NCBI GenBank assembly: GCA_029573015.1
Contig: JAKQHK010000101.1
Location: 1-43,487 of the forward strand
Source of the DNA: a bacterium
Lineage (GTDB): Bacteria; Patescibacteriota; CG2-30-54-11
Direction: 5' to 3'
DNA: 43,487 nucleotides
Shown here one piece after another: positions 107 through 31,779 of the stretch. The notes under the pieces are model-generated. The model saw only the letters and a list, made by a program, of their open reading frames with translations. It did no database searches and was not told the DNA's origin. Position numbers and translations under genes: made by a program. Within the stretch, counting starts at the first letter, position 1, and each line of letters opens with the position of its first letter.

Positions 107-184
107 TGGGGTGACTGATGGGACTCGAACCCACGGCCTCCAGGGCCACAACCTGGCGCTCTAACCAACTGAGCTACAGTCACC
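107..184 (-). tRNA. tRNA-His (GUG), with G-1 and encoded CCA
   Basis: Reverse complement GGTGACTGTAGCTCAGTTGGTTAGAGCGCCAGGTTGTGGCCCTGGAGGCCGTGGGTTCGAGTCCCATCAGTCACCCCA folds as a cloverleaf; anticodon GTG, C73 discriminator. Confidence 0.96.
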
Positions 185-252
185 ATATTGATTGAATCGA
201 ATAATAAATGTACAGGATGAACCTTGGCCAAAGGCCAACCGTCCTCTGGACG

Positions 253-377
253 CAACTGCCCACCTCCGCTTATTCCTCTTTCGCTAACGCTTCAGAGGAC
301 TTCGGCTTCGGTGGATAATTTCGTCATCCACTCTCCGCCTACGGCGGATCGCGGTGACTCTCTAAAGCTACAGTCAC
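253..377 (-). repeat. Interrupted 5' copy of tRNA-His: GTGACTGTAGCT, then a 107-nt hairpin insert, then CAGTTG
   Basis: 377-366 is identical to tRNA-His nt 1-12 and 258-253 resumes the tRNA (CAGTTG). Insert 365-313 matches the 27955 repeat unit at 44/53 positions, ungapped. Confidence 0.85.
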
Positions 378-513: not shown

Positions 514-760
514 CTATATTTTCAATAATCTTTTGTGCATAAATGCTCGACCTGAACAAGTTTTTAAATATCGTTCAAAAGATAAGGCAAGCTCCTTGTC
601 ATCAAACGCAAAATAAGTTCTCAGTCTCCAAGGACGATATTTGCTAGTATAAACAGAATCGCCTTTATTATGTGCAGATACTCTCTGTAAAACATCCGTT
701 GTATAGCCAGTATAAACTTGCTCTGGATTCGCTATACTTTGAATGATATACCCAATACAT
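514..760 (-). pseudogene. Small GIY-YIG nuclease, frameshifted near the start
   Basis: Manual translation: ATG at 760 gives MYWVY. A shifted frame reads YIIQSIANPEQVYTGYTTDVLQRVSAHNKGDSVYTSKYRPWRLRTYFAFDDKELALSFERYLKTCSGRAFMHKRLLKI-stop (514). It has the VY..YTG, R..H and E.YLK motifs. Restoring 2 nt in the TATAT run joins the frames. Confidence 0.88.
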
Positions 761-801
761 TTTCGAATCGGTTAATATAATGGCTTGAAGTTAATTTAAT
801 C

Positions 802-919
802 TGCCCGCCTTCGTTATTCAACTTCGTCGGGCAGCCTTCGCTTCCTTTTTTTTGCAGTGGCGTGCCAGCCGTAGCTCGACAGAGCCCCATCGAATGACGG
901 GGCGAAAAAGAGCGAAGGC
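802..919. repeat. Cluster of GC-rich CGAAG/CTTCG-containing palindromes upstream of the GIY-YIG pseudogene
   Basis: tgcccgccttcg...cttcgtcgggca, agccttcgct...agcgaaggct and gccccatcgaatgacggggc form nested inverted repeats. Confidence 0.65.
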
Positions 920-1252: not shown

Positions 1253-1329
1253 TGGTGCGCCCAGCAGGACTCGAACCTGCAACCTACTGCTTAGAAGGCA
1301 GTTGCTCTATCCAATTAAGCTATGAGCGC
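1253..1329 (-). tRNA. tRNA-Arg (UCU)
   Basis: Reverse complement GCGCTCATAGCTTAATTGGATAGAGCAACTGCCTTCTAAGCAGTAGGTTGCAGGTTCGAGTCCTGCTGGGCGCACCA; anticodon TCT, A20, CCA. Confidence 0.96.
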
Positions 1330-6476: not shown

Positions 6477-9400
6477 TTATGGCTCGATCGCCATCCAGTA
6501 GAACGAACTGTTGACATCGCCAGAACAATACGCAGTAAACTGGCTGGCAGTTACTCCACTTACCGTAACACGTGTGTTAACCGTATTGATCGGGGTAGCG
6601 GTTATAATCGGGGCTACACCAAAGGCAGCAGGATAATTAACAACAACAGTACCCGCTGCGCAGGTACCCATGCCCCTCTGCAAGTCAGCATCTGTCAGGA
6701 CGGTCGATCCACCAACTGTAGCGCTACCTGCGCTAAGAGCTCCAGCAGTTGTAATCGAACCAGCTGTTAGCGCTCCGCCAGTTGTAATACTTGCTGCGGA
6801 AAGCGCACCAGAAGTAGTAATGCTCCCTGCACTAAGTGCACCAGCAGTCGTAAAGCTTCCAGCAGATACTGCCCCGCTAGCTGTAAGTGATACTGCACCG
6901 ATTGACCCAGCACCAATGATATTGCCTCCCGTGATGGACAAACCACCATTAATAAAGCTCGCAGCAGTAAACGTACCACCAGCAGCAGTGATCGAGCCAT
7001 TAGACTGATCAATCCTAAGGACTTCTGCGCCAGCAGGAGCAACATTCGATCTCACAACAACATCACCAACAAAGGTGTTGTCATTGCCGGTTGAAGTCGT
7101 GCTGACATATCCGAACTGCCCAAGCCCTGCAGCCTGGATGCTGGAAACGCTAATCGTGGCGCTGGTGGCGCTGATATTGTTGCCTGCAATGGTCACATTG
7201 CCGTCATCATCTACAGAGAACACCGCATTGGCTGTACCGGAATTTTCAATCTCAAACCCACCGCCAGCCTGAACCGTAACCGGCTGACCGGTCGAATTAA
7301 CGATTTTCCCCTGGATATCAATGCTTCTTACGGTGGTATTACCGTCGACATTGAGTTCATTATTCAGATCAACATTTCCGCTTACCGTAGCTCCACCGCT
7401 GACCGTCATGCCATCTTCGATTGTTGCTCCGTCCTTGAGAGTTGTCGCTCCATTCACCGTCATGCCGCCGGTGATGGTAACACCAGCATTGAGTGTGGCA
7501 ATGTCATCATCAACCGTCACGCCGTCAAGAGTCGTTGCGCCGTTGACATCGAGGTTGCCGGTTACATTCAAGTTAGCAAGACCAAGAGCACCGGTCAGCG
7601 TCATGTTATCAGCAGTTATATCTGTGGCATCCACATCCCCATTCTCATCAACCGTGAAAACCGGCACAGCCGCAACGGAATTTACTTGAATCGCTACCGC
7701 ATCGTCAGCCGGTGTGAGGATGATATCCGTCGGATCGATGGAACCGCTCACATAAAGGTCGCCTATTACTGCGACATGTTTGCCTGTGCTGGCAGCATTT
7801 CCGAGCGGATCGACTGCAAACACAGTCGTCTCGGTTGTGTAATCCTGAACCGCGATACCCTGGTCATCCCGCAGATACAGCGGATTGGCTTCACCGGATC
7901 CGATAGAACCGGTTACATGCAGCCGGTCATTAACACTCACATAATTAGTGTCACTCGCTGTGCCGTTCATGATCGTTGCTGCGTAGACCGTGTTCCAACC
8001 GTTTGATCCGGATCCCAGATTCCTACTTCCGGTCGGAATAATGTTGGTGTTGATACGTCCGTTGACCGAAATCGTGTCAGCAGCAGCATCCCCGAGATCA
8101 ACCGTACCATTAAGCGTGGTGGCGCCGTCAACTGTCAAATTACCGGTATTATCCAGATCGCCATTATTCGTCGTCGGCTGTCCCATGGGATAGAATTGTA
8201 CATCGCCATAGAGATAGACGCCTTTGCCGGCACTACCGATGTCGGCATCACCGTCATGGTCAATCGCACTGTCAACATCACCACGAAAGAAATTACTGCC
8301 ATGTAATGTCATATCGCCGTAGAAATCCGATGCCGCTTGCACCGTCAGGACATCATTCAGTGTGGTCGCCCCATCAACGTCAAGCGTGCCGGTGATGTAG
8401 GCATCATCACAATAGGTGGATCCCCCCACCGCAACACTCAAGCAACCGATGAAGTCGTCAGCATAGATTTCATCCCATTCCAACCCTGCTGCACCAAGAT
8501 CAAATGTTTGGTGTGCGTTGGGAACAACATCGCTGTTGATGCGGGCATTGTAGACGACTATGTCGCCCAATGCATCACCAAGGAGAGTATTGCCCGAGAC
8601 AGATAGTGTATTACCGACACTTACGTTGTTGCTGATTGTTGCATTGTTACCAACGGTCAAATTGACATCGGCGGTAACATTGTTTAAAGCTCTGACATTA
8701 TTGTCCGCTCGTACATCTACCGCGGACCGGATGGTGTTGGCAGCATACACATTGCCATCCTCTGTGACCAGGAAAACATCAGCGGTATCAAGTGAATCAC
8801 GCACCTCGATCACATCCTGGCCATCCCCGATCGGCTGGAAATAAATCGCCGTGGGATCAATAGTACCGGTTACCTCCAGGTCGCCATTGATACTCACTTC
8901 ATAGTGAGACGCCATAGGGCCCGCCTCTGGTACGCCATTACGCATGGTGACAAAAGTATTGCCATCACTGCGGAAATCAAACCCATGGCTATCGCCAAAG
9001 ATGAGGGGGTCAGCATCTCCGGAACCGATGGAATCAGTGACGAGCAGACGGTCATCAACCATGACATATCCGCTGTTAGCAGCAGGATTGCTGTTGTAGA
9101 TGGCTCCCTGGATATCGATTGTATCAGTAGCGTCAGTCCCCAGCACCGTATCTTCGTAAACATTCAAATAGTCGGTGTTGATTGTCGTCGCCGTAATGGT
9201 ATCAACAAACAGATTAGCCCACTCACGTGCTGCAGAACCGAGATTATAAGCAAGCGTCGTGCTTGGCAGAACGTCCGCTCTTATATCCACAATACCTGTC
9301 TGGGGCACGAGGAAAATATTTCCTCCGCCGGCTGTGGTACGAATGGTGAGTGCCCCGCCAACTTTCTGAATTGCATTATTAAGCACTCCTGTCTGGTTGC

Positions 9401-12047
9401 CCGGCATTCCTACCTGCACACTGTTCGAATAATACCCACTGTTCCACCGATCCATGCCAGTACCTAAATCCCAGCTACCTCCCTGTGGAACAACATGACC
9501 GTAGGAATACGTGTAATTGCTACTCGGCCATAATTCAACATCATATCCACCCATCGTACCAAGTATAATATCCATACCGATACTGCCAACAGCTCCGGGA
9601 ACGATACCACTGATTGTCCCGCTCCCATTAATATCACCAACTGCAACCCCCTGACTGAAAAATCCAGCCATCCAGCGATTATTCGGATCACCAAGTAAAT
9701 ACATATCGTCAACGCCAGGGAATAGGTTATCATCAATAATTACGTCGCCGATAGAATTATATATTCTATCCTGAGCATCTATGTCATCATAATAATGTTC
9801 TGGACTGCTGTGGAATGACTCTCCGTAAACATATAAGTCATTGTGCACAATAGTGTCACCAGCCGCATCAACCTCAAACCAATCTGTACCGCTGCCATAA
9901 TGCTCTACCAGGAAGCCATCATTGTCAGCCACGATGAGCTGCTGCCCGGGAGCGGTTGATCCGCTACCGATAGAGACCGGAACGAGCAGGCGGTCGTCAA
10001 CGAGCACGTGGCCGTTATTTGCCGTACCAAGATTAACAATCCGATCCTGCGCATCGATATCATCATAATAGTGCTCTGGTCCATAGTGTTCTGACTCAGC
10101 ATACACGGTTAGATACTCAGTATAGACATTACCGGTATACACATTGTTCCATCTGCTCCATGGCTTGCCAAGATCATAGGTTAAGTCCATGGTGGGAATA
10201 ATATCCGCGGCTGATCGTACTTTTTCATTGCCGGGCCGCAATACGACATTATGCTCTGGTGCCAGGACGATATTGTAATTTCCGCCGCCGTCTGTCACCA
10301 GTCGCATATCCTGCCCTACAGTCCTCAAACCATTGTCCCGAAGGACAGTTTGCAGTCCGGCTACTCCTACCCGAACGGTATCAGAGAAAAATCCGTCACT
10401 CCAGCGGTAGTTCGGCAAGCCGATGGAATACATGCCATTGGACTCAGGCACGAGGTCAGTGGCAAATCTGCCGTTGGCATAGAGCAGATCGCTCGTGTCA
10501 TCCCCGAGATAGACATATCCGTTCAGATAGGTATCACCGTCAACCGTTATGTCGCCTAGATTATAGTAATTCCCATAATTAGTGGTAACAACATCGGGAA
10601 AGAAATCAATAGCTCCCCAAAGTGCCACATCTTTGCCATAGTCACCAATATCTGCATCACCGTAGTGATCAATATAGCTGTATTCATTGCCATAAAACAA
10701 TGCTGTAAAAGTATCCGTCCCAATCAGATTGATGCTGTCATAGTAATACTCAGGCCCGTAGTGGTAGGACTCGCCATCAACTGCGAGATTACCATCGATC
10801 CAGACATCCCCGGTTACCTCCAGGTTGTCATCCACAACCACAATGTCAGTTATGGAATTAGTAATGGTTGTCTGGGCATCCAGACCGCCATGTACGATTG
10901 CATCCGCGGCGACCTCCAGGCTGTCATCCACGACGACCATACCGGTGTCTGAATTAACGATTGTACCCTGCGCATCAATGATGTCGTAAAAATGCTCCGG
11001 ACCGTTATGGAATGACTCGGTATTCACGGTCAGAGTGTCCACAGTCAGGTCAGTAGCAATGATGGTATCAACGTAAATATTAGCCCATTCATTACCGAGC
11101 GCACCAAGGTCATAGGTGCTGTCTGCGGTTGGCTGGATATTTGCTCCAAACAGATTGCCATTCTCATCCACGAGGAATGAGCTGGCGCCGCTCGTGTCGC
11201 GCACGTCAATAGCCGTATCGCCGTCAGCTACTGGTTCCAGTAACATGTCGGTAGCATTAACGCCTGCGGTTACATACAGCCCGCCGATCACTCCGACCGT
11301 CTCTCCATTGGGTCCGATACCGGTTTCGTCGACGTAGAGCGTGCCATCAGCCGCGAGCGTGCCGGTGGTGGTATCGTCTACGGTCAGATCAGTATAGGGA
11401 TTAATCTTATCGCCGGTGACCGAACCGTCCTGAATGGCAAAGGTGCCGACGGCATCCTCGGACAGCTGGTCACTCGTGATGGCATGCGGGGTGATGTACT
11501 CGGTTCCGACTGCCCAGATACGCATATCATGCCAGTTGACATCCCCTTCCTTGATCTGCAACGTGCCGATTGATTCAGGACCTGCACCGACAGTATTGGT
11601 AACGTAGGTTGTCGGATTCGTGACCACGGTTGTACCAGTGCCGGTTGTACCGGTGCCAGTGGTACCAGTGGTGTTACCCACCTCGCTGACCCGGGATTCC
11701 AGTTCATCCACCCTGTCGGTCAGGTCAGTAATGGTTGCCGAGCTTCCTGCATCCACGACGAGATTGGCACCCTCGGCTGTATCAGAAACACCGAGAACCT
11801 GCCCCCCCATCTTCTTACCTTCTTCACCGGGATACAGAACCGCCCCGAATACGGTATCATTTCCGCTAAACTTGATCCCTACTGCCAGTTCATCATCCAG
11901 CTGGTCAACCCCGACTGCCTGCGCTTCGATCTGGTCTCCCTTGATCGTCTGCGAACCGCTGTAGGCGACATAGCCGAGCACGCCTGACAGGATCGCGAGA
12001 ACCCCAAAGACTGCAACTGCGACCTTCAGTCCTTGTTGGTCTTTCAT
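6477..12047 (-). CDS. Giant (~1,856 aa) membrane-anchored, repetitive beta-rich surface/fibre-like protein
   Basis: Long uninterrupted ORF; AGGGAG RBS favours ATG at 12047. It has an N-terminal TM, recurring YDLG....W..(I/V)Y, ES.H.GPE.YYD.IDAQ and V.DRL.V..SIGSG modules, and a C-terminal domain (V.YP.AF...P.I.AT) resembling tail-fibre/H-lectin ends. Confidence 0.85.
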   Translation of the reverse strand: MKDQQGLKVAVAVFGVLAILSGVLGYVAYSGSQTIKGDQIEAQAVGVDQLDDELAVGIKFSGNDTVFGAVLYPGEEGKKMGGQVLGVSDTAEGANLVVDAGSSATITDLTDRVDELESRVSEVGNTTGTTGTGTTGTGTTVVTNPTTYVTNTVGAGPESIGTLQIKEGDVNWHDMRIWAVGTEYITPHAITSDQLSEDAVGTFAIQDGSVTGDKINPYTDLTVDDTTTGTLAADGTLYVDETGIGPNGETVGVIGGLYVTAGVNATDMLLEPVADGDTAIDVRDTSGASSFLVDENGNLFGANIQPTADSTYDLGALGNEWANIYVDTIIATDLTVDTLTVNTESFHNGPEHFYDIIDAQGTIVNSDTGMVVVDDSLEVAADAIVHGGLDAQTTITNSITDIVVVDDNLEVTGDVWIDGNLAVDGESYHYGPEYYYDSINLIGTDTFTALFYGNEYSYIDHYGDADIGDYGKDVALWGAIDFFPDVVTTNYGNYYNLGDITVDGDTYLNGYVYLGDDTSDLLYANGRFATDLVPESNGMYSIGLPNYRWSDGFFSDTVRVGVAGLQTVLRDNGLRTVGQDMRLVTDGGGNYNIVLAPEHNVVLRPGNEKVRSAADIIPTMDLTYDLGKPWSRWNNVYTGNVYTEYLTVYAESEHYGPEHYYDDIDAQDRIVNLGTANNGHVLVDDRLLVPVSIGSGSTAPGQQLIVADNDGFLVEHYGSGTDWFEVDAAGDTIVHNDLYVYGESFHSSPEHYYDDIDAQDRIYNSIGDVIIDDNLFPGVDDMYLLGDPNNRWMAGFFSQGVAVGDINGSGTISGIVPGAVGSIGMDIILGTMGGYDVELWPSSNYTYSYGHVVPQGGSWDLGTGMDRWNSGYYSNSVQVGMPGNQTGVLNNAIQKVGGALTIRTTAGGGNIFLVPQTGIVDIRADVLPSTTLAYNLGSAAREWANLFVDTITATTINTDYLNVYEDTVLGTDATDTIDIQGAIYNSNPAANSGYVMVDDRLLVTDSIGSGDADPLIFGDSHGFDFRSDGNTFVTMRNGVPEAGPMASHYEVSINGDLEVTGTIDPTAIYFQPIGDGQDVIEVRDSLDTADVFLVTEDGNVYAANTIRSAVDVRADNNVRALNNVTADVNLTVGNNATISNNVSVGNTLSVSGNTLLGDALGDIVVYNARINSDVVPNAHQTFDLGAAGLEWDEIYADDFIGCLSVAVGGSTYCDDAYITGTLDVDGATTLNDVLTVQAASDFYGDMTLHGSNFFRGDVDSAIDHDGDADIGSAGKGVYLYGDVQFYPMGQPTTNNGDLDNTGNLTVDGATTLNGTVDLGDAAADTISVNGRINTNIIPTGSRNLGSGSNGWNTVYAATIMNGTASDTNYVSVNDRLHVTGSIGSGEANPLYLRDDQGIAVQDYTTETTVFAVDPLGNAASTGKHVAVIGDLYVSGSIDPTDIILTPADDAVAIQVNSVAAVPVFTVDENGDVDATDITADNMTLTGALGLANLNVTGNLDVNGATTLDGVTVDDDIATLNAGVTITGGMTVNGATTLKDGATIEDGMTVSGGATVSGNVDLNNELNVDGNTTVRSIDIQGKIVNSTGQPVTVQAGGGFEIENSGTANAVFSVDDDGNVTIAGNNISATSATISVSSIQAAGLGQFGYVSTTSTGNDNTFVGDVVVRSNVAPAGAEVLRIDQSNGSITAAGGTFTAASFINGGLSITGGNIIGAGSIGAVSLTASGAVSAGSFTTAGALSAGSITTSGALSAASITTGGALTAGSITTAGALSAGSATVGGSTVLTDADLQRGMGTCAAGTVVVNYPAAFGVAPIITATPINTVNTRVTVSGVTASQFTAYCSGDVNSSFYWMAIEP
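6711..6875 (-). repeat. Five tandem 33-bp (11-aa) coding repeats
   Basis: GAVSAGSFTTA GALSAGSITTS GALSAASITTG GALTAGSITTA GALSAGSATVG. Confidence 0.9.
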
Positions 12048-27942: not shown

Positions 27943-28184
27943 GCCCCCTAAGTTTTAGTGAATCACCGCGAAGCGCCGCAGGCGGTGAGCGGATGATGAA
28001 CTTATCCTCGGAACGAAGAGAAGGTGGGTTAGTGAATCACCGCGAAGCGCCACAGGCGATGAGCGGATGATGAACTTATCCTCGGAACGAAGTTAAGACG
28101 GGTTAGTGAATTACCGCGAAGCGCCACAGGCGATGAGCGGATGATGAACTTATCCGCCGCAGCGAAGCGAAGGCGGACAACTGG
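27943..28184 (+). repeat. Interrupted 5' copy of tRNA-Arg(UCG) containing three tandem 74-75-nt hairpin units
   Basis: gccccctaagtt (27943-27954; tRNA has gcccccttagct), units starting at 27955, 28029 and 28103, then caactgg (28178-28184) resumes the tRNA D-loop. Confidence 0.88.
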
Positions 28185-28237
28185 GCAGATATACCTTAGT
28201 TCCTTACAATCTGTTTTAATAATACAATTACAAGCGT

Positions 28238-28314
28238 GCCCCCTTAGCTCAACTGGATAGAGTACCTGGCTTCGAACCAGATGGTTGGGGGTTCAAATCC
28301 TCCAGGGGGCACCA
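28238..28314 (+). tRNA. tRNA-Arg (UCG)
   Basis: GCCCCCTTAGCTCAACTGGATAGAGTACCTGGCTTCGAACCAGATGGTTGGGGGTTCAAATCCTCCAGGGGGCACCA; anticodon loop CTTCGAA, A20, CCA. Confidence 0.95.
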
Positions 28315-28337
28315 CCGACAATACAAACGATTGGGAT

Positions 28338-28479
28338 CAACCCAACCCGTCAGATCCCGTGAGCGCAGCGAAGCGGGATTCAAATCCTCCAGGGGGCACC
28401 AATGATAACATTTTCGAATAAGACCAACTCAACCCGTCAGATCCCGTGAACAGCGTGAAGCGGGATTCAAATCCTCCAG
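28338..28479 (+). repeat. Two 87-nt-period units: hairpin plus duplicated tRNA-Arg(UCG) 3' end
   Basis: caacccgtcag-atcccgtga..gaagcgggat-tcaaatcctccag(ggggcacca); 28379-28401 is identical to the last 23 nt of the tRNA. Confidence 0.88.
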
Positions 28480-30826: not shown

Positions 30827-30942
30827 GGGTCGCTAGCTTCAGATCATTCGATCTGATAAACAATCGGTAGTTAGTTGCCTCTTAAGCAATTGGTTCAGGG
30901 TTTCCGGTCATCCGACCGGACCGGGTCGTATGACCCGGCGAG
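30827..30942 (+). pseudogene. Interrupted, 3'-truncated copy of tRNA-Lys with two hairpin inserts
   Basis: gggtcgctagct[tcagatcattcgatctgataaa]caatcggtagttagttgcctcttaagcaattggttcagggtt[tccggtcatccgaccgga ccgggtcgtatgacccgg]cgag. Confidence 0.9.
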
Positions 30943-30972: not shown

Positions 30973-31254
30973 ATGTATTACGTCTATTTTCTACTCCTCG
31001 CCAATGGCGACATATACAAAGGTTCGTGTTCTGATGTGCAACAACGTCTGATTGATCATCAAAACGGTCGTGTCAAATCCACCCAGCATTATCTGCCATT
31101 TCATCTTATCGGATACGAATGTTATTATTTAAAAAGTGATGCGCTGAGAAGAGAAAAATTCCTGAAAACAACAGAGGGGCGTCGTTTACTCAAACAGCAA
31201 TATAAGGATATAATTAATCATCTGACCGAAAATATTTCCCAAACGGGTCGCTAG
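30973..31254 (+). CDS. Small GIY-YIG nuclease (UPF0213/SLX1-like)
   Basis: MYYVYFL....G.IYKG...D...RL..H..G...ST..Y.P..L..YE......A..RE.FLKT..GR; its last codons and stop lie within the tRNA-Lys 5' end. Confidence 0.93.
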   Translation: MYYVYFLLLANGDIYKGSCSDVQQRLIDHQNGRVKSTQHYLPFHLIGYECYYLKSDALRREKFLKTTEGRRLLKQQYKDIINHLTENISQTGR

Positions 31255-31319
31255 CTCAATGGTAGAGCAGTTGCCTCTTAAGCAATTGGTTCAGGGTTCG
31301 AGCCCCTGGCGACCCACCA
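31245..31319 (+). tRNA. tRNA-Lys (CUU)
   Basis: GGGTCGCTAGCTCAATGGTAGAGCAGTTGCCTCTTAAGCAATTGGTTCAGGGTTCGAGCCCCTGGCGACCCACCA; anticodon CTT. Confidence 0.96.
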
Positions 31320-31344
31320 TATAGTCATTTTTTCCTGTTTGACA

Positions 31345-31779
31345 TCAGGGGCGAGAAGTAAGATCCCCTGCAATCCCGAAGCTCTGGGATGGAAGGGGAA
31401 GCCCCTGGTTTACCCGCCGAACCCTGAACGAAGTGAAGGGGAAGGCGGGCGACCCACCACAGATCTTAACGAATCGGCCAACGGACGATGAGTTTAGAAA
31501 TGTGGTGTACCGGATGATGTCAGATCAGCATCCGGTACAGAGCAAGAAAACGTTAGTATGCAAAGCGTTTCCACAGGATGGAAAATTTTTTTATCAGGGG
31601 CGAGACGTACAGCCCTGAGTATAGAGAAGAACAAGGTCCGCTGTAGTCAGCCAAAGGCTGACGGAAGCGGAAGCCCCTGGTTTACCCGCCGAACCCTGAA
31701 CGAAGTGAAGGGGAAGGCGGGCGACCCACCACAGATCTTAACGAATCGGCCAACGGACGATGAGTTTAGAGATGTGGTG
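31345..31779 (+). repeat. Two interrupted 3' copies of tRNA-Lys, including a 111-bp direct repeat (31397-31507 and 31669-31779, 1 mismatch)
   Basis: tcaggggcgag[variable hairpin..gaag]cccctgg[tttacccgcc..ggcggg]cgacccacca at 31345-31459 and 31594-31731. Confidence 0.9.

Follow-up and report, generated by a model that had tools for sequence, protein, structure and literature searches.

The stretch of DNA analysed here (hereafter, the window) is a contig of 43,487 nucleotides (nt; JAKQHK010000101.1) from the 1.35 Mb Patescibacteriota assembly GCA_029573015.1 (hereafter G000, with its other contigs given as C-numbers), and our subject is a 53-nt hairpin unit found in partial copies of tRNA gene ends. 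Four tRNA genes (His, Arg-UCU, Arg-UCG, and Lys-CUU) were identified in the window using ARAGORN, in agreement with Rfam. The tRNA-His locus lies on the minus strand (107–771), and its intact tRNA-His(GUG) gene (107..183; Rfam tRNA 70.6 bits) is preceded, 194 nt upstream, by an exact 12-mer copy of its own positions 1–12 (GTGACTGTAGCT, 366..377). Following this 5′ fragment are the 53-nt unit (‘E’, 313..365; minimum free energy −23.3 kcal/mol, z −5.35), a second hairpin of 54 nt (‘P2’, 259..312) with the closing stem CCACC/GGTGG and a hairpin nested inside it, positions 13–17 of tRNA-His (CAGTT, 254..258), an unrelated double hairpin (GCGTCCAGAGGACGG + TTGGCCTTTGGCCAA, 224..253) at tRNA position 17/18, and positions 18–21 (GGTT, 220..223), where the likeness to tRNA-His ends; a spacer (184..219) then leads to the intact gene. 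The unit scores 73.5 bits against R1, a covariance model that we built from six TTAG-type copies, and unit and P2 together (259–365) fold with −47.9 kcal/mol (z −6.98). Open reading frames (ORFs) over this copy are short (40–55 codons, either strand) and were taken as spurious, and a consensus scan returned a promoter-like site (TGGCCA-18-TATTAT, 230 to 201, minus strand; a pattern match only). The assembly has a second tRNA-His gene (C91:2497–2573), which differs in its acceptor stem and is not flanked by fragments; this gene may be paralogous, or its contig may belong to another organism in the bin (contamination is stated as 2%).

The tRNA-Arg(UCG) locus on the plus strand has the same arrangement. 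About 295 nt upstream of the intact gene (28238..28314; ARAGORN, Rfam), a fragment corresponding to tRNA positions 1–12 (GCCCCCTAAGTT, 27943..27954) is followed by three tandem 74-nt repeats (27955..28176; direct-repeat family D1; R1 80–82.5 bits), each folding and each headed by a 53-nt E unit (27955–28007, 28029–28081, and 28103–28155), the last of them ending in a P2 hairpin (about 28154–28176). Positions 13–19 of the tRNA (CAACTGG, 28178..28184) and an AT-rich spacer of 53 nt (28185..28237) complete the upstream side. On the 3′ side, two tandem 87-nt units (28315..28479; repeat family D4) were found, composed of a spacer, a hairpin (ATCCCG..CGGGAT), and a tRNA 3′ fragment recovered in the fragment census described below (28379–28401, positions 55–77; 28466–28479, positions 55–68). 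In an ungapped comparison on both strands of the whole assembly, the His unit matched the Arg units at 44/53 (27955), 42/53 (28029), and 41/53 (28103) positions, followed by a further copy at C85:919 (37/53), with all other sites at ≤30/53; 20 shuffled queries peaked at 29–33/53 genome-wide. Thus, the 44/53 identity reported in a preliminary description of this DNA, made from the sequence alone, was reproduced, as was its observation that both sites carry a further hairpin before their own tRNA resumes (CAGTTG, 258–253; CAACTGG, 28178–28184). What that description called tRNA copies do match tRNA 5′ ends, but they are 12-nt gene-end fragments upstream of intact genes and not second genes; the Arg fragment is indeed tRNA-Arg(UCG) positions 1–12, although identical at only 10/12, and the His site has the unit, hairpin, and resumption described together with the second, unrelated double hairpin at 17/18.

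An insert at a defined tRNA position, after which the tRNA sequence resumes, is reminiscent of an intron or of a split or permuted tRNA gene. We consider this scarcely credible, given that just 5–15 nt of tRNA follow the insert (46 in a tRNA-Lys copy described below) and that an intact gene stands beside every case. Only positions 1–21 (His) and 1–19 (Arg) are present, ARAGORN and Rfam detect no second tRNA, and neither group I nor group II intron models give a match. The missing remainder of the tRNA, together with tandem units that have no spacers between them, led us to reject the intron, split-gene, and CRISPR-like readings.

The unit is a family of small non-coding hairpin repeats with a strand-specific fold, represented by 23 distinct copies of 43–53 nt. 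Each copy comprises an outer helix of 4–5 base pairs (bp; TAAT/ATTA) and a tandem G.A, then two successive covarying helices of 4 bp, a further tandem G.A, and an inner hairpin that varies, and the ends are conserved (TAATGAG/TTAGTGA ... CGAATTATCC/GAANTTATCC; also AATGAG...CGAATTA). One or more units are followed by the second hairpin, the closing stem of which covaries across loci (CCACC/GGTGG, CCTCC/GGAGG, CCGCC/GGCGG, and CCAGC/GCTGG). When the 23 copies were aligned to R2, a second covariance model built from ten TAATGAG-type copies, 96.6% of cells were paired and 8/13 pairs had changed on both sides (48 cells), with a covariation score of 0.414 compared to 0.179 for shuffled alignments (0/500 reached it) and a maximum of 0.054 for slid partners; these values are to be read with the caveat that the consensus structure derives from the same sequences and that the alignment is fitted to R2. 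A MAFFT alignment of ten copies gave similar results (96.0% paired, 7/13 pairs changed on both sides, 0/500 shuffles), and ViennaRNA yielded the same helices with no prior structure (z −3.3 to −7.0). The given strand folds more stably (−23.3 and −21.8 kcal/mol) than its complement (−17.8 and −16.5 kcal/mol), both as RNA and as DNA, and the G.U and tandem G.A pairs exist on the tRNA-sense strand alone (the given strand; upstream copies).

Known families gave no counterpart to the unit. Only the four tRNAs passed an Rfam gathering-threshold scan of the window, and Rfam scans of both loci with E up to 10 returned only tRNA and weak chance matches, among them C/D-box snoRNA matches on GGATGATGAAC (E 0.8–8), which we rejected as chance. 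A blastn search of 27943–28184 against phage and plasmid collections found no match, a pattern scan of metagenomes hit solely contigs of G000’s own organism, and among 80 viral-contig loci retrieved with a loose, slightly out-of-register pattern, a single weak model match (E 0.058) was taken as chance.

To place the copies, we compared G000 with the four other genomes of its class in the collection searched (five in all): G002 (a sister genus, 97% complete), G003 (another genus of the same family), G001 (congeneric with G003), and G004 (another family, used as the control in the fragment census). Population contigs of the G000 organism assembled from metagenomes (among them L094, L096, and L099) were included in the locus counts. 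Using nhmmer, R1, and R2, we found 11 unit loci in the G000 organism and two in G003, and 12 of these 13 lie inside a terminal tRNA or transfer-messenger RNA (tmRNA) fragment adjoining the intact gene, the remaining one (contig C44) having no tRNA nearby; in G000, the link to tRNA gene ends is therefore nearly exclusive. Six loci of the G000 organism are upstream and in sense orientation, after a 5′ fragment (His, Arg-UCG, Val-GAC, Val-CAC, Leu-CAG, and Leu-GAG, with two modules at each Val gene; the two Leu loci were resolved via contig L096, an extension of C105), and four are downstream on the opposite strand (tmRNA, Pro-CGG, Thr-CGU, and Leu-UAA), where the unit directly follows the reverse complement of the gene’s last 13–21 nt. 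The G003 loci are tRNA-His, at position 12/13, and the D-loop of a Leu-like tRNA. From the outside towards the gene, the order of parts is constant (terminal fragment, unit or units, hairpin, the next 5–15 nt of the gene, spacer, intact gene), so that the unit always points at the gene.

These loci bear on two claims of the preliminary description. Its argument that local duplication cannot account for the sharing of the unit was borne out by a multi-copy, structured, non-coding element common to several tRNA species. The proposed specificity for tRNA position 12/13 was not: this position is used at only five loci (His, Arg-UCG, Val-GAC, Val-CAC, and G003 His), whereas the unit occupies the D-loop in the class II tRNA-Leu genes (three Leu fragments) and, inverted, T-loop positions about 56/57 to 60/61 in the downstream 3′ fragments. 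Moreover, hairpins unrelated to the unit occur at position 12/13 of the window tRNA-Lys fragment and of tRNA-His, Ala-CGC, Arg-UCG, and Thr-UGU in G002, and the site therefore seems to be set by the target or by a break, not by the unit.

Since repeats break the assembly (C105, C41, and C3 are contigs that terminate within arrays of the unit), the arrangement might be suspected to be an artefact of a metagenome bin, which we regard as next to negligible. Two public activated-sludge DNA runs, and no RNA run, are listed as containing the locus, and the same junctions are spanned with no differences in metagenome and public-run contigs; contigs over the locus from four DNA runs showed no joints and no alternative alleles, only pieces ending at repeats. 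Metagenome contigs are also 100% identical to other G000 loci, although they may stem from the same samples as the assembly. Furthermore, the same layout recurs with different sequences in G002, G003, and G104, another genome of the phylum, and the copies covary. Some variation exists within the population: contigs L094 and L099 have one more unit module at Thr-CGU than C103, and a variant at Pro-CGG has a unit with a compensatory stem change.

Partial copies of tRNA gene ends occur genome-wide and are specific to this lineage. In a census of exact 10-mers of tRNA ends within 600 nt of a gene (which misses the diverged Arg-UCG 5′ fragment of G000), terminal fragments flank 18/31 tRNAs in G000, 12/47 in G002, and 1/41 in G004. 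In G000, 7 tRNAs have 5′ fragments and 15 have 3′ fragments. The 5′ fragments end at positions 12 (six), 17 (two), and 10 (one) in G000 and at positions 12 (four of 8), 14, 15, 32, and 54 in G002, and the 3′ fragments start mostly at 55–66. The next 6 nt of the tRNA recur within 160 nt past the break in 22/42 fragments, compared to 2/42 reversed decoys; therefore, many fragments are longer copies interrupted by an insertion. The repeats also take in bases upstream of tRNA position 1 (ATATG in G003, TTTATG in G002, and CGT at Arg). A retro-element origin, by copying of tRNA pieces, was rejected on this extension and on the lack of an RVT_1 match in G002; a reverse transcriptase domain was found in G000.

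Fragments that run from the T-loop to the CCA end, close behind a tRNA gene, are typical leftovers of tyrosine integrases (PMC9897764), and tandem arrays look like repeated integration. Accordingly, the fragments could be attachment-site (att) remnants of decayed islands or phages that hairpins invaded later, and such att-site fragments are likewise partial copies beside an intact gene, in many cases with a start in the T-loop and with the CCA retained. We judge this origin very improbable. Nothing but hairpins or a GIY-YIG ORF occupies the intervals of 60–400 nt, which contain no island. Integration does not usually produce 5′ fragments that stop at position 12 or 17, and many fragments run past the insertion. 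Not only are 5′ fragments and insertions inside fragments foreign to att sites, but most tRNAs of one lineage are affected, with 18/31 hit against 1/41 in the neighbouring family. No island or integrase gene was seen in the window flanks that were read, and no genome-wide search for integrase families was made.

The inserts are diverse, including, in addition to the 53-nt unit, a double hairpin at 17/18, GTC-NNNN-GAC hairpins in T-loops (which elsewhere serve as terminator-like stems), and TCC...GGA hairpins in G002. The double hairpin (CGTCC-ARA-GGACG plus a second stem) occurs at 17/18 of the His, Pro-UGG, and Ala-UGC fragments and at non-tRNA sites. Its parts CGTCCAAAGGACGA and TGGACCTCTGGTCCA are also present in AACCCG-type repeats away from tRNAs (C31:9842, C75:11570–11614, C85:9513–9541, and C64:4–18 of G000), and this module is therefore not tRNA-specific. 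Several fragments (His, Lys, and Thr-UGU) have two or three separate insertions, and the 12/13 site of tRNA-His holds three different inserts in three genera: a TTAG-type unit in G000, a TAATGAG-type unit in G003, and an unrelated hairpin in G002. One insertion into an existing fragment is observed directly: the 3′ fragment of tRNA-Arg-ACG contains an extra 39-nt hairpin at 65/66 in G001 and is uninterrupted in the congeneric G003, which shows that hairpins enter fragments already in place. This clean insertion concerns another hairpin and not the 53-nt unit. The tRNA-Leu-CAG and Leu-GAG genes of G001 are without the fragment-unit arrangement, but divergence of their flanks prevents the event from being defined. 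The spacers that separate resumed bases from intact gene consist of unrelated filler and close with a short stretch repeated from the native flank (ATATG in G003, TTTATG in G002, and 51 nt at Ala-CGC), and the resumed bases of G002 tRNA-Arg-UCG read CAGTT where its own tRNA has CAACT.

A selected role for these structures is worth weighing, namely that fragment and hairpins together form a leader (downstream, a trailer) with a function in the processing, stability, or regulation of pre-tRNA; such a structure might, for instance, compete for the acceptor strand or offer a protein-binding site at the tandem G.A. The resumed bases of G003 lie just 14 nt from the intact tRNA-His, and transcription of this gene therefore most likely runs through the unit; in G002, a TATAAT box (found by eye) lies upstream of the outer fragment. 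Between G000 and G003, the His unit shows a compensatory change (GTCA/TGAC vs GTCC/GGAC), the fragment follows its own tRNA in both, and the restriction of the G.U and tandem G.A pairs to the tRNA-sense strand would be in keeping with an RNA function. We nevertheless hold such a function to be quite improbable: the downstream copies are antisense to the tRNA, copy number varies in the population (Thr-CGU), the arrangement is missing at the two G001 Leu genes, different hairpins replace one another at the same site, and there is no Rfam match.

Beyond the family, R2 matched 7 of 151 sampled genomes of the phylum at E ≤0.01, including G000 and G003. Of six unit-like loci examined in the other five genomes, only one is linked to a tRNA: at tRNA-Ser-GCU of G104, the fragment, unit, resumption, and gene have the same layout. 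The remaining five loci are intergenic and have no tRNA, and the unit type is therefore older and more widespread than its association with tRNA genes. In genome G131 (loci L180 and L185), unit-like elements abut apparent start codons on the other strand (..TCAT|TTAATGAGG..); the 5′ untranslated region would then be made of the unit’s complement and would contain a GGAG.

Some fragment loci have a small nuclease gene of the GIY-YIG family (Pfam PF01541). In the window, a partial tRNA-Lys(CUU) copy spanning positions 1–58 (30827..30938, plus strand; sequence comparison) is interrupted by a 22-nt hairpin at 12/13 (30839–30860) and by a T-loop double hairpin (30903–30938), and a GIY-YIG gene of 93 amino acids (aa; 30973..31254, also given as 30973–31251, plus strand; 41.6 bits) lies between this copy and the intact tRNA-Lys(CUU) (31245..31319, plus strand; ARAGORN), the start of which the end of the GIY-YIG gene overlaps. 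A second small frame is located 140 nt upstream of the His fragment (517..771, minus strand; 85 codons; 50.8 bits); it has no ATG, GTG, or TTG before residue 76 of 85 and is either decayed or uses another start. The third, on contig C60, sits between a tRNA-Pro(UGG) fragment and the intact gene, and the same order is found at tRNA-Gly(UCC) in G002, with a GIY-YIG ORF between the partial and intact copies. The proteins of these loci are 79–93 aa long and consist of the catalytic domain only, and 4/7 small GIY-YIG frames in the G000 assembly are within 300 nt of a tRNA. No GIY-YIG gene was found at the Arg-UCG locus within 27.3–28.5 kb.

Relatives of the C60 protein were found at 12 loci in other phyla, four of them with a tRNA on the same strand within about 150 nt (coordinates as read). 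Two of these, a Phycisphaerales chromosome (CP070806.1; L086, 1387–1941) and a metagenome-assembled genome (MAG) of Chitinophagaceae (L091, 107–780), have the full order of partial copy, GIY-YIG gene, and intact tRNA, with the partial copy of the same tRNA on the far side of the nuclease gene. GIY-YIG genes beside tRNAs also occur in L082 (1389–1856), a Microgenomates MAG, and in L085 (1128–1831). A precedent exists in SegB of phages T4 and T6, a free-standing GIY-YIG homing endonuclease in tRNA gene clusters (PMC2330249). In a 2026 paper, SegB is reported to cut in tRNA regions and to drive the tandem amplification of a tRNA-segB unit with a microhomology junction (PMC13096335). The likeness is a GIY-YIG nuclease gene beside tRNA genes; it is an analogy, with no homology beyond the domain. 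SegB amplifies whole tRNA genes, whereas 12–20-nt ends with hairpins are involved here, the 79–93-aa proteins are bacterial, and most unit loci have no nuclease gene.

Short, non-coding, multi-copy elements of this kind are familiar from repetitive extragenic palindromes and their mosaics (REP/BIME elements, associated with RAYT transposases) and from hairpin-ended derivatives of IS200/IS605 insertion sequences, which form imperfect hairpins on one strand and occur singly or in tandem clusters. Compared by description only, the unit resembles them as a short multi-copy hairpin with mismatches conserved on one strand, single or in tandem, and differs in having no conserved border tetranucleotide, in the near-confinement of its copies to tRNA-end fragments, and in an orientation fixed to the gene. 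G000 encodes Y1 transposases (PF01797) on C14 (149 bits) and C73 (117 bits). In G002, Y1 transposase fragments are located at many contig ends (C7:6–74, C46:128966–129034, C50:116051–116119, C51:4–72, and C35:43742–43816), suggesting a multi-copy element of the IS200/IS605 type, and tRNA-Arg(CCG), with its 3′ fragment, has one such Y1 fragment about 300 nt downstream.

Based on these data, we propose, with what we consider an even chance of being right, that duplicated tRNA gene ends are the habitat of the unit as a non-autonomous hairpin element, that the duplications arise from breaks for which the GIY-YIG genes are candidate causes, and that interruption helps the copies to persist. The ends of tRNA and tmRNA genes would have been partly duplicated, repeatedly, in the family of G000, leaving the intact gene between short terminal copies. 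Most likely, the duplications would be by-products of breaks in or beside tRNA genes, with the small GIY-YIG nucleases as a putative source. A unit of the REP or miniature inverted-repeat transposable element (MITE) kind would then colonise the dispensable copies at D-arm and T-loop positions, as would unrelated small hairpins. It may survive there because insertion into the intact gene would be lethal, and interrupted copies may persist because less direct repeat is then left through which the duplication could collapse. We infer from the above both the mobility of the unit and an enzyme that moves it, as well as the nuclease origin of the duplications and the reason for the lack of uninterrupted fragments.

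Several observations weigh against this proposal. The unit points at the intact gene at all 12 linked loci and at G104, in sense orientation upstream and antisense downstream, which simple transposition does not predict and which fits 3′-end addition during repair. No uninterrupted fragment was seen among the 42 listed, suggesting that a single event may combine break, duplication, and insertion. At positions 4 and 15, where G000 and G003 are not alike, the His fragment agrees with its own tRNA, so re-creation of the fragment or some coupling to the gene is needed. No target-site duplication or fixed target sequence is visible at the unit borders, close relatives provided no pair of filled and empty sites for the 53-nt unit, and the unit-like loci elsewhere in the phylum mostly stand apart from tRNAs. 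In addition, no enzyme is tied to the unit: the ends of the IS200-like element on C14 look unlike it by eye (C73 and other transposase families were not compared). GIY-YIG genes are absent from most unit loci, and G004 contains three GIY-YIG frames under 200 aa yet almost no fragments.

The main rival, which we place on the unlikely side, is that each arrangement is the scar of one repair event. A break or a stalled polymerase at the first structured part of a tRNA gene (the D-arm for entry from the 5′ side, the T-arm from the 3′ side) would be followed by template switching, in which the outer 3′ end is extended by copying a hairpin unit at another locus, goes back briefly to the gene, and restarts upstream, yielding fragment, unit, resumed bases, filler, and intact gene in one step, with the units as passengers of repair. 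This reading best explains the inward orientation (13/13 linked loci including G104, as expected from extension of the outer 3′ end), the filler-like spacers that end in a short copy of the native flank, the resumed CAGTT of G002 Arg-UCG, as if taken from a donor locus, and the lack of uninterrupted fragments; breaks 12–21 nt inside either gene end are also consistent with it. Conversely, a hairpin entered an existing fragment alone (G001 vs G003), fragments with two or three insertions need several events, unit-like copies exist away from tRNAs in other genomes, and passive copying leaves the covariation of the unit unexplained. Unlikely in our estimation is a process directed at tRNA genes and specific to this lineage, possibly driven by GIY-YIG nucleases, in which breaks occur at the first structured arm from either end, a hairpin is joined to the outer 3′ end, and the gene is regenerated. 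If true, tRNA genes would gain ordered, inward-pointing modules of end copy plus hairpin through a new tRNA-directed mobile or repair system.

Our preferred proposal, a hairpin element in duplicated gene ends, has parallels in other small elements. In fungal mitochondria, mobile ORFs supply a substitute gene end that takes the place of the original, and double-hairpin and GC-cluster elements populate non-essential DNA there. An endonuclease gene, a duplicated host gene end that leaves a pseudo-fragment, and small mobile hairpins are common to both situations; the compartment and the genes differ, the genes being those of bacterial tRNAs here. The very small dispersed repeats of cyanobacteria, the Rickettsia palindromic elements, and the Correia elements are tiny, structured sequences that are found nested inside each other and can be accommodated within RNA genes or other repeats. 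By their description, they resemble the unit in size and structure, and to our knowledge none is known to be confined to duplicated tRNA gene ends.

Few sites in bacterial genomes are as conserved, or as frequently targeted, as transfer RNA genes, and the known traces of such targeting are integrase scars and a few introns. In the literature that we searched, we found no account of tRNA end fragments with hairpins or of small GIY-YIG genes beside partial tRNA copies, and the pattern points to an apparently undescribed, recurrent process of insertion or of break and repair at tRNA genes. More than half of the tRNA genes in one uncultured lineage have ordered partial end copies interrupted by small covarying hairpins. 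If these arose by insertion, a family of tiny elements would have found an unusual safe haven; if they arose in one step, a repair or mobility mechanism not yet described would be at work. The order of partial tRNA, GIY-YIG gene, and intact tRNA across phyla suggests that very common and unstudied minimal nucleases may be selfish genes directed at tRNA genes. In practical terms, such fragments break assemblies and can mislead tRNA annotation.

The remaining tRNA loci of the window have 3′ fragments as well. Downstream of the intact tRNA-Arg(UCU) (1253..1329, minus strand; ARAGORN, Rfam), two 3′ fragments of this tRNA are located at 1149–1131 and 974–963 on the same strand, and two 3′ fragments of tRNA-Lys (GGCGACCCACCA, plus strand) follow the intact gene at +129 and +401. 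The region downstream of tRNA-Lys contains two 120-nt repeats (31388–31507 and 31660–31779; 98% identical), each ending in the last 12 nt of the tRNA. A trailer repeat family (..ATCTTAGCGA..hairpin..GATGAGCTTTAGAG..) begins right where intact genes or the outermost 3′ fragments end in CCA (window 31320–31480; C60, C113, C22, C52, C34, C96, and C85 of G000). It has a TTAG-GA...GA-CTTA motif in common with the 53-nt unit and is itself followed by TGGTG, the complement of the CACCA end of the tRNA. Another trailer family (GCCTTCGCAGAAGGCTGCCCGACGAAGC...) lies 3′ of the CCA of several tRNAs or fragments (window 780–860, minus strand; C2, C20, C103, and C133 of G000). Finally, diverged direct repeats of 30–76 nt (families D2, D6, D8, D16, and D17) extend over 7290–11170 of the window, suggesting a large repetitive protein-coding region.

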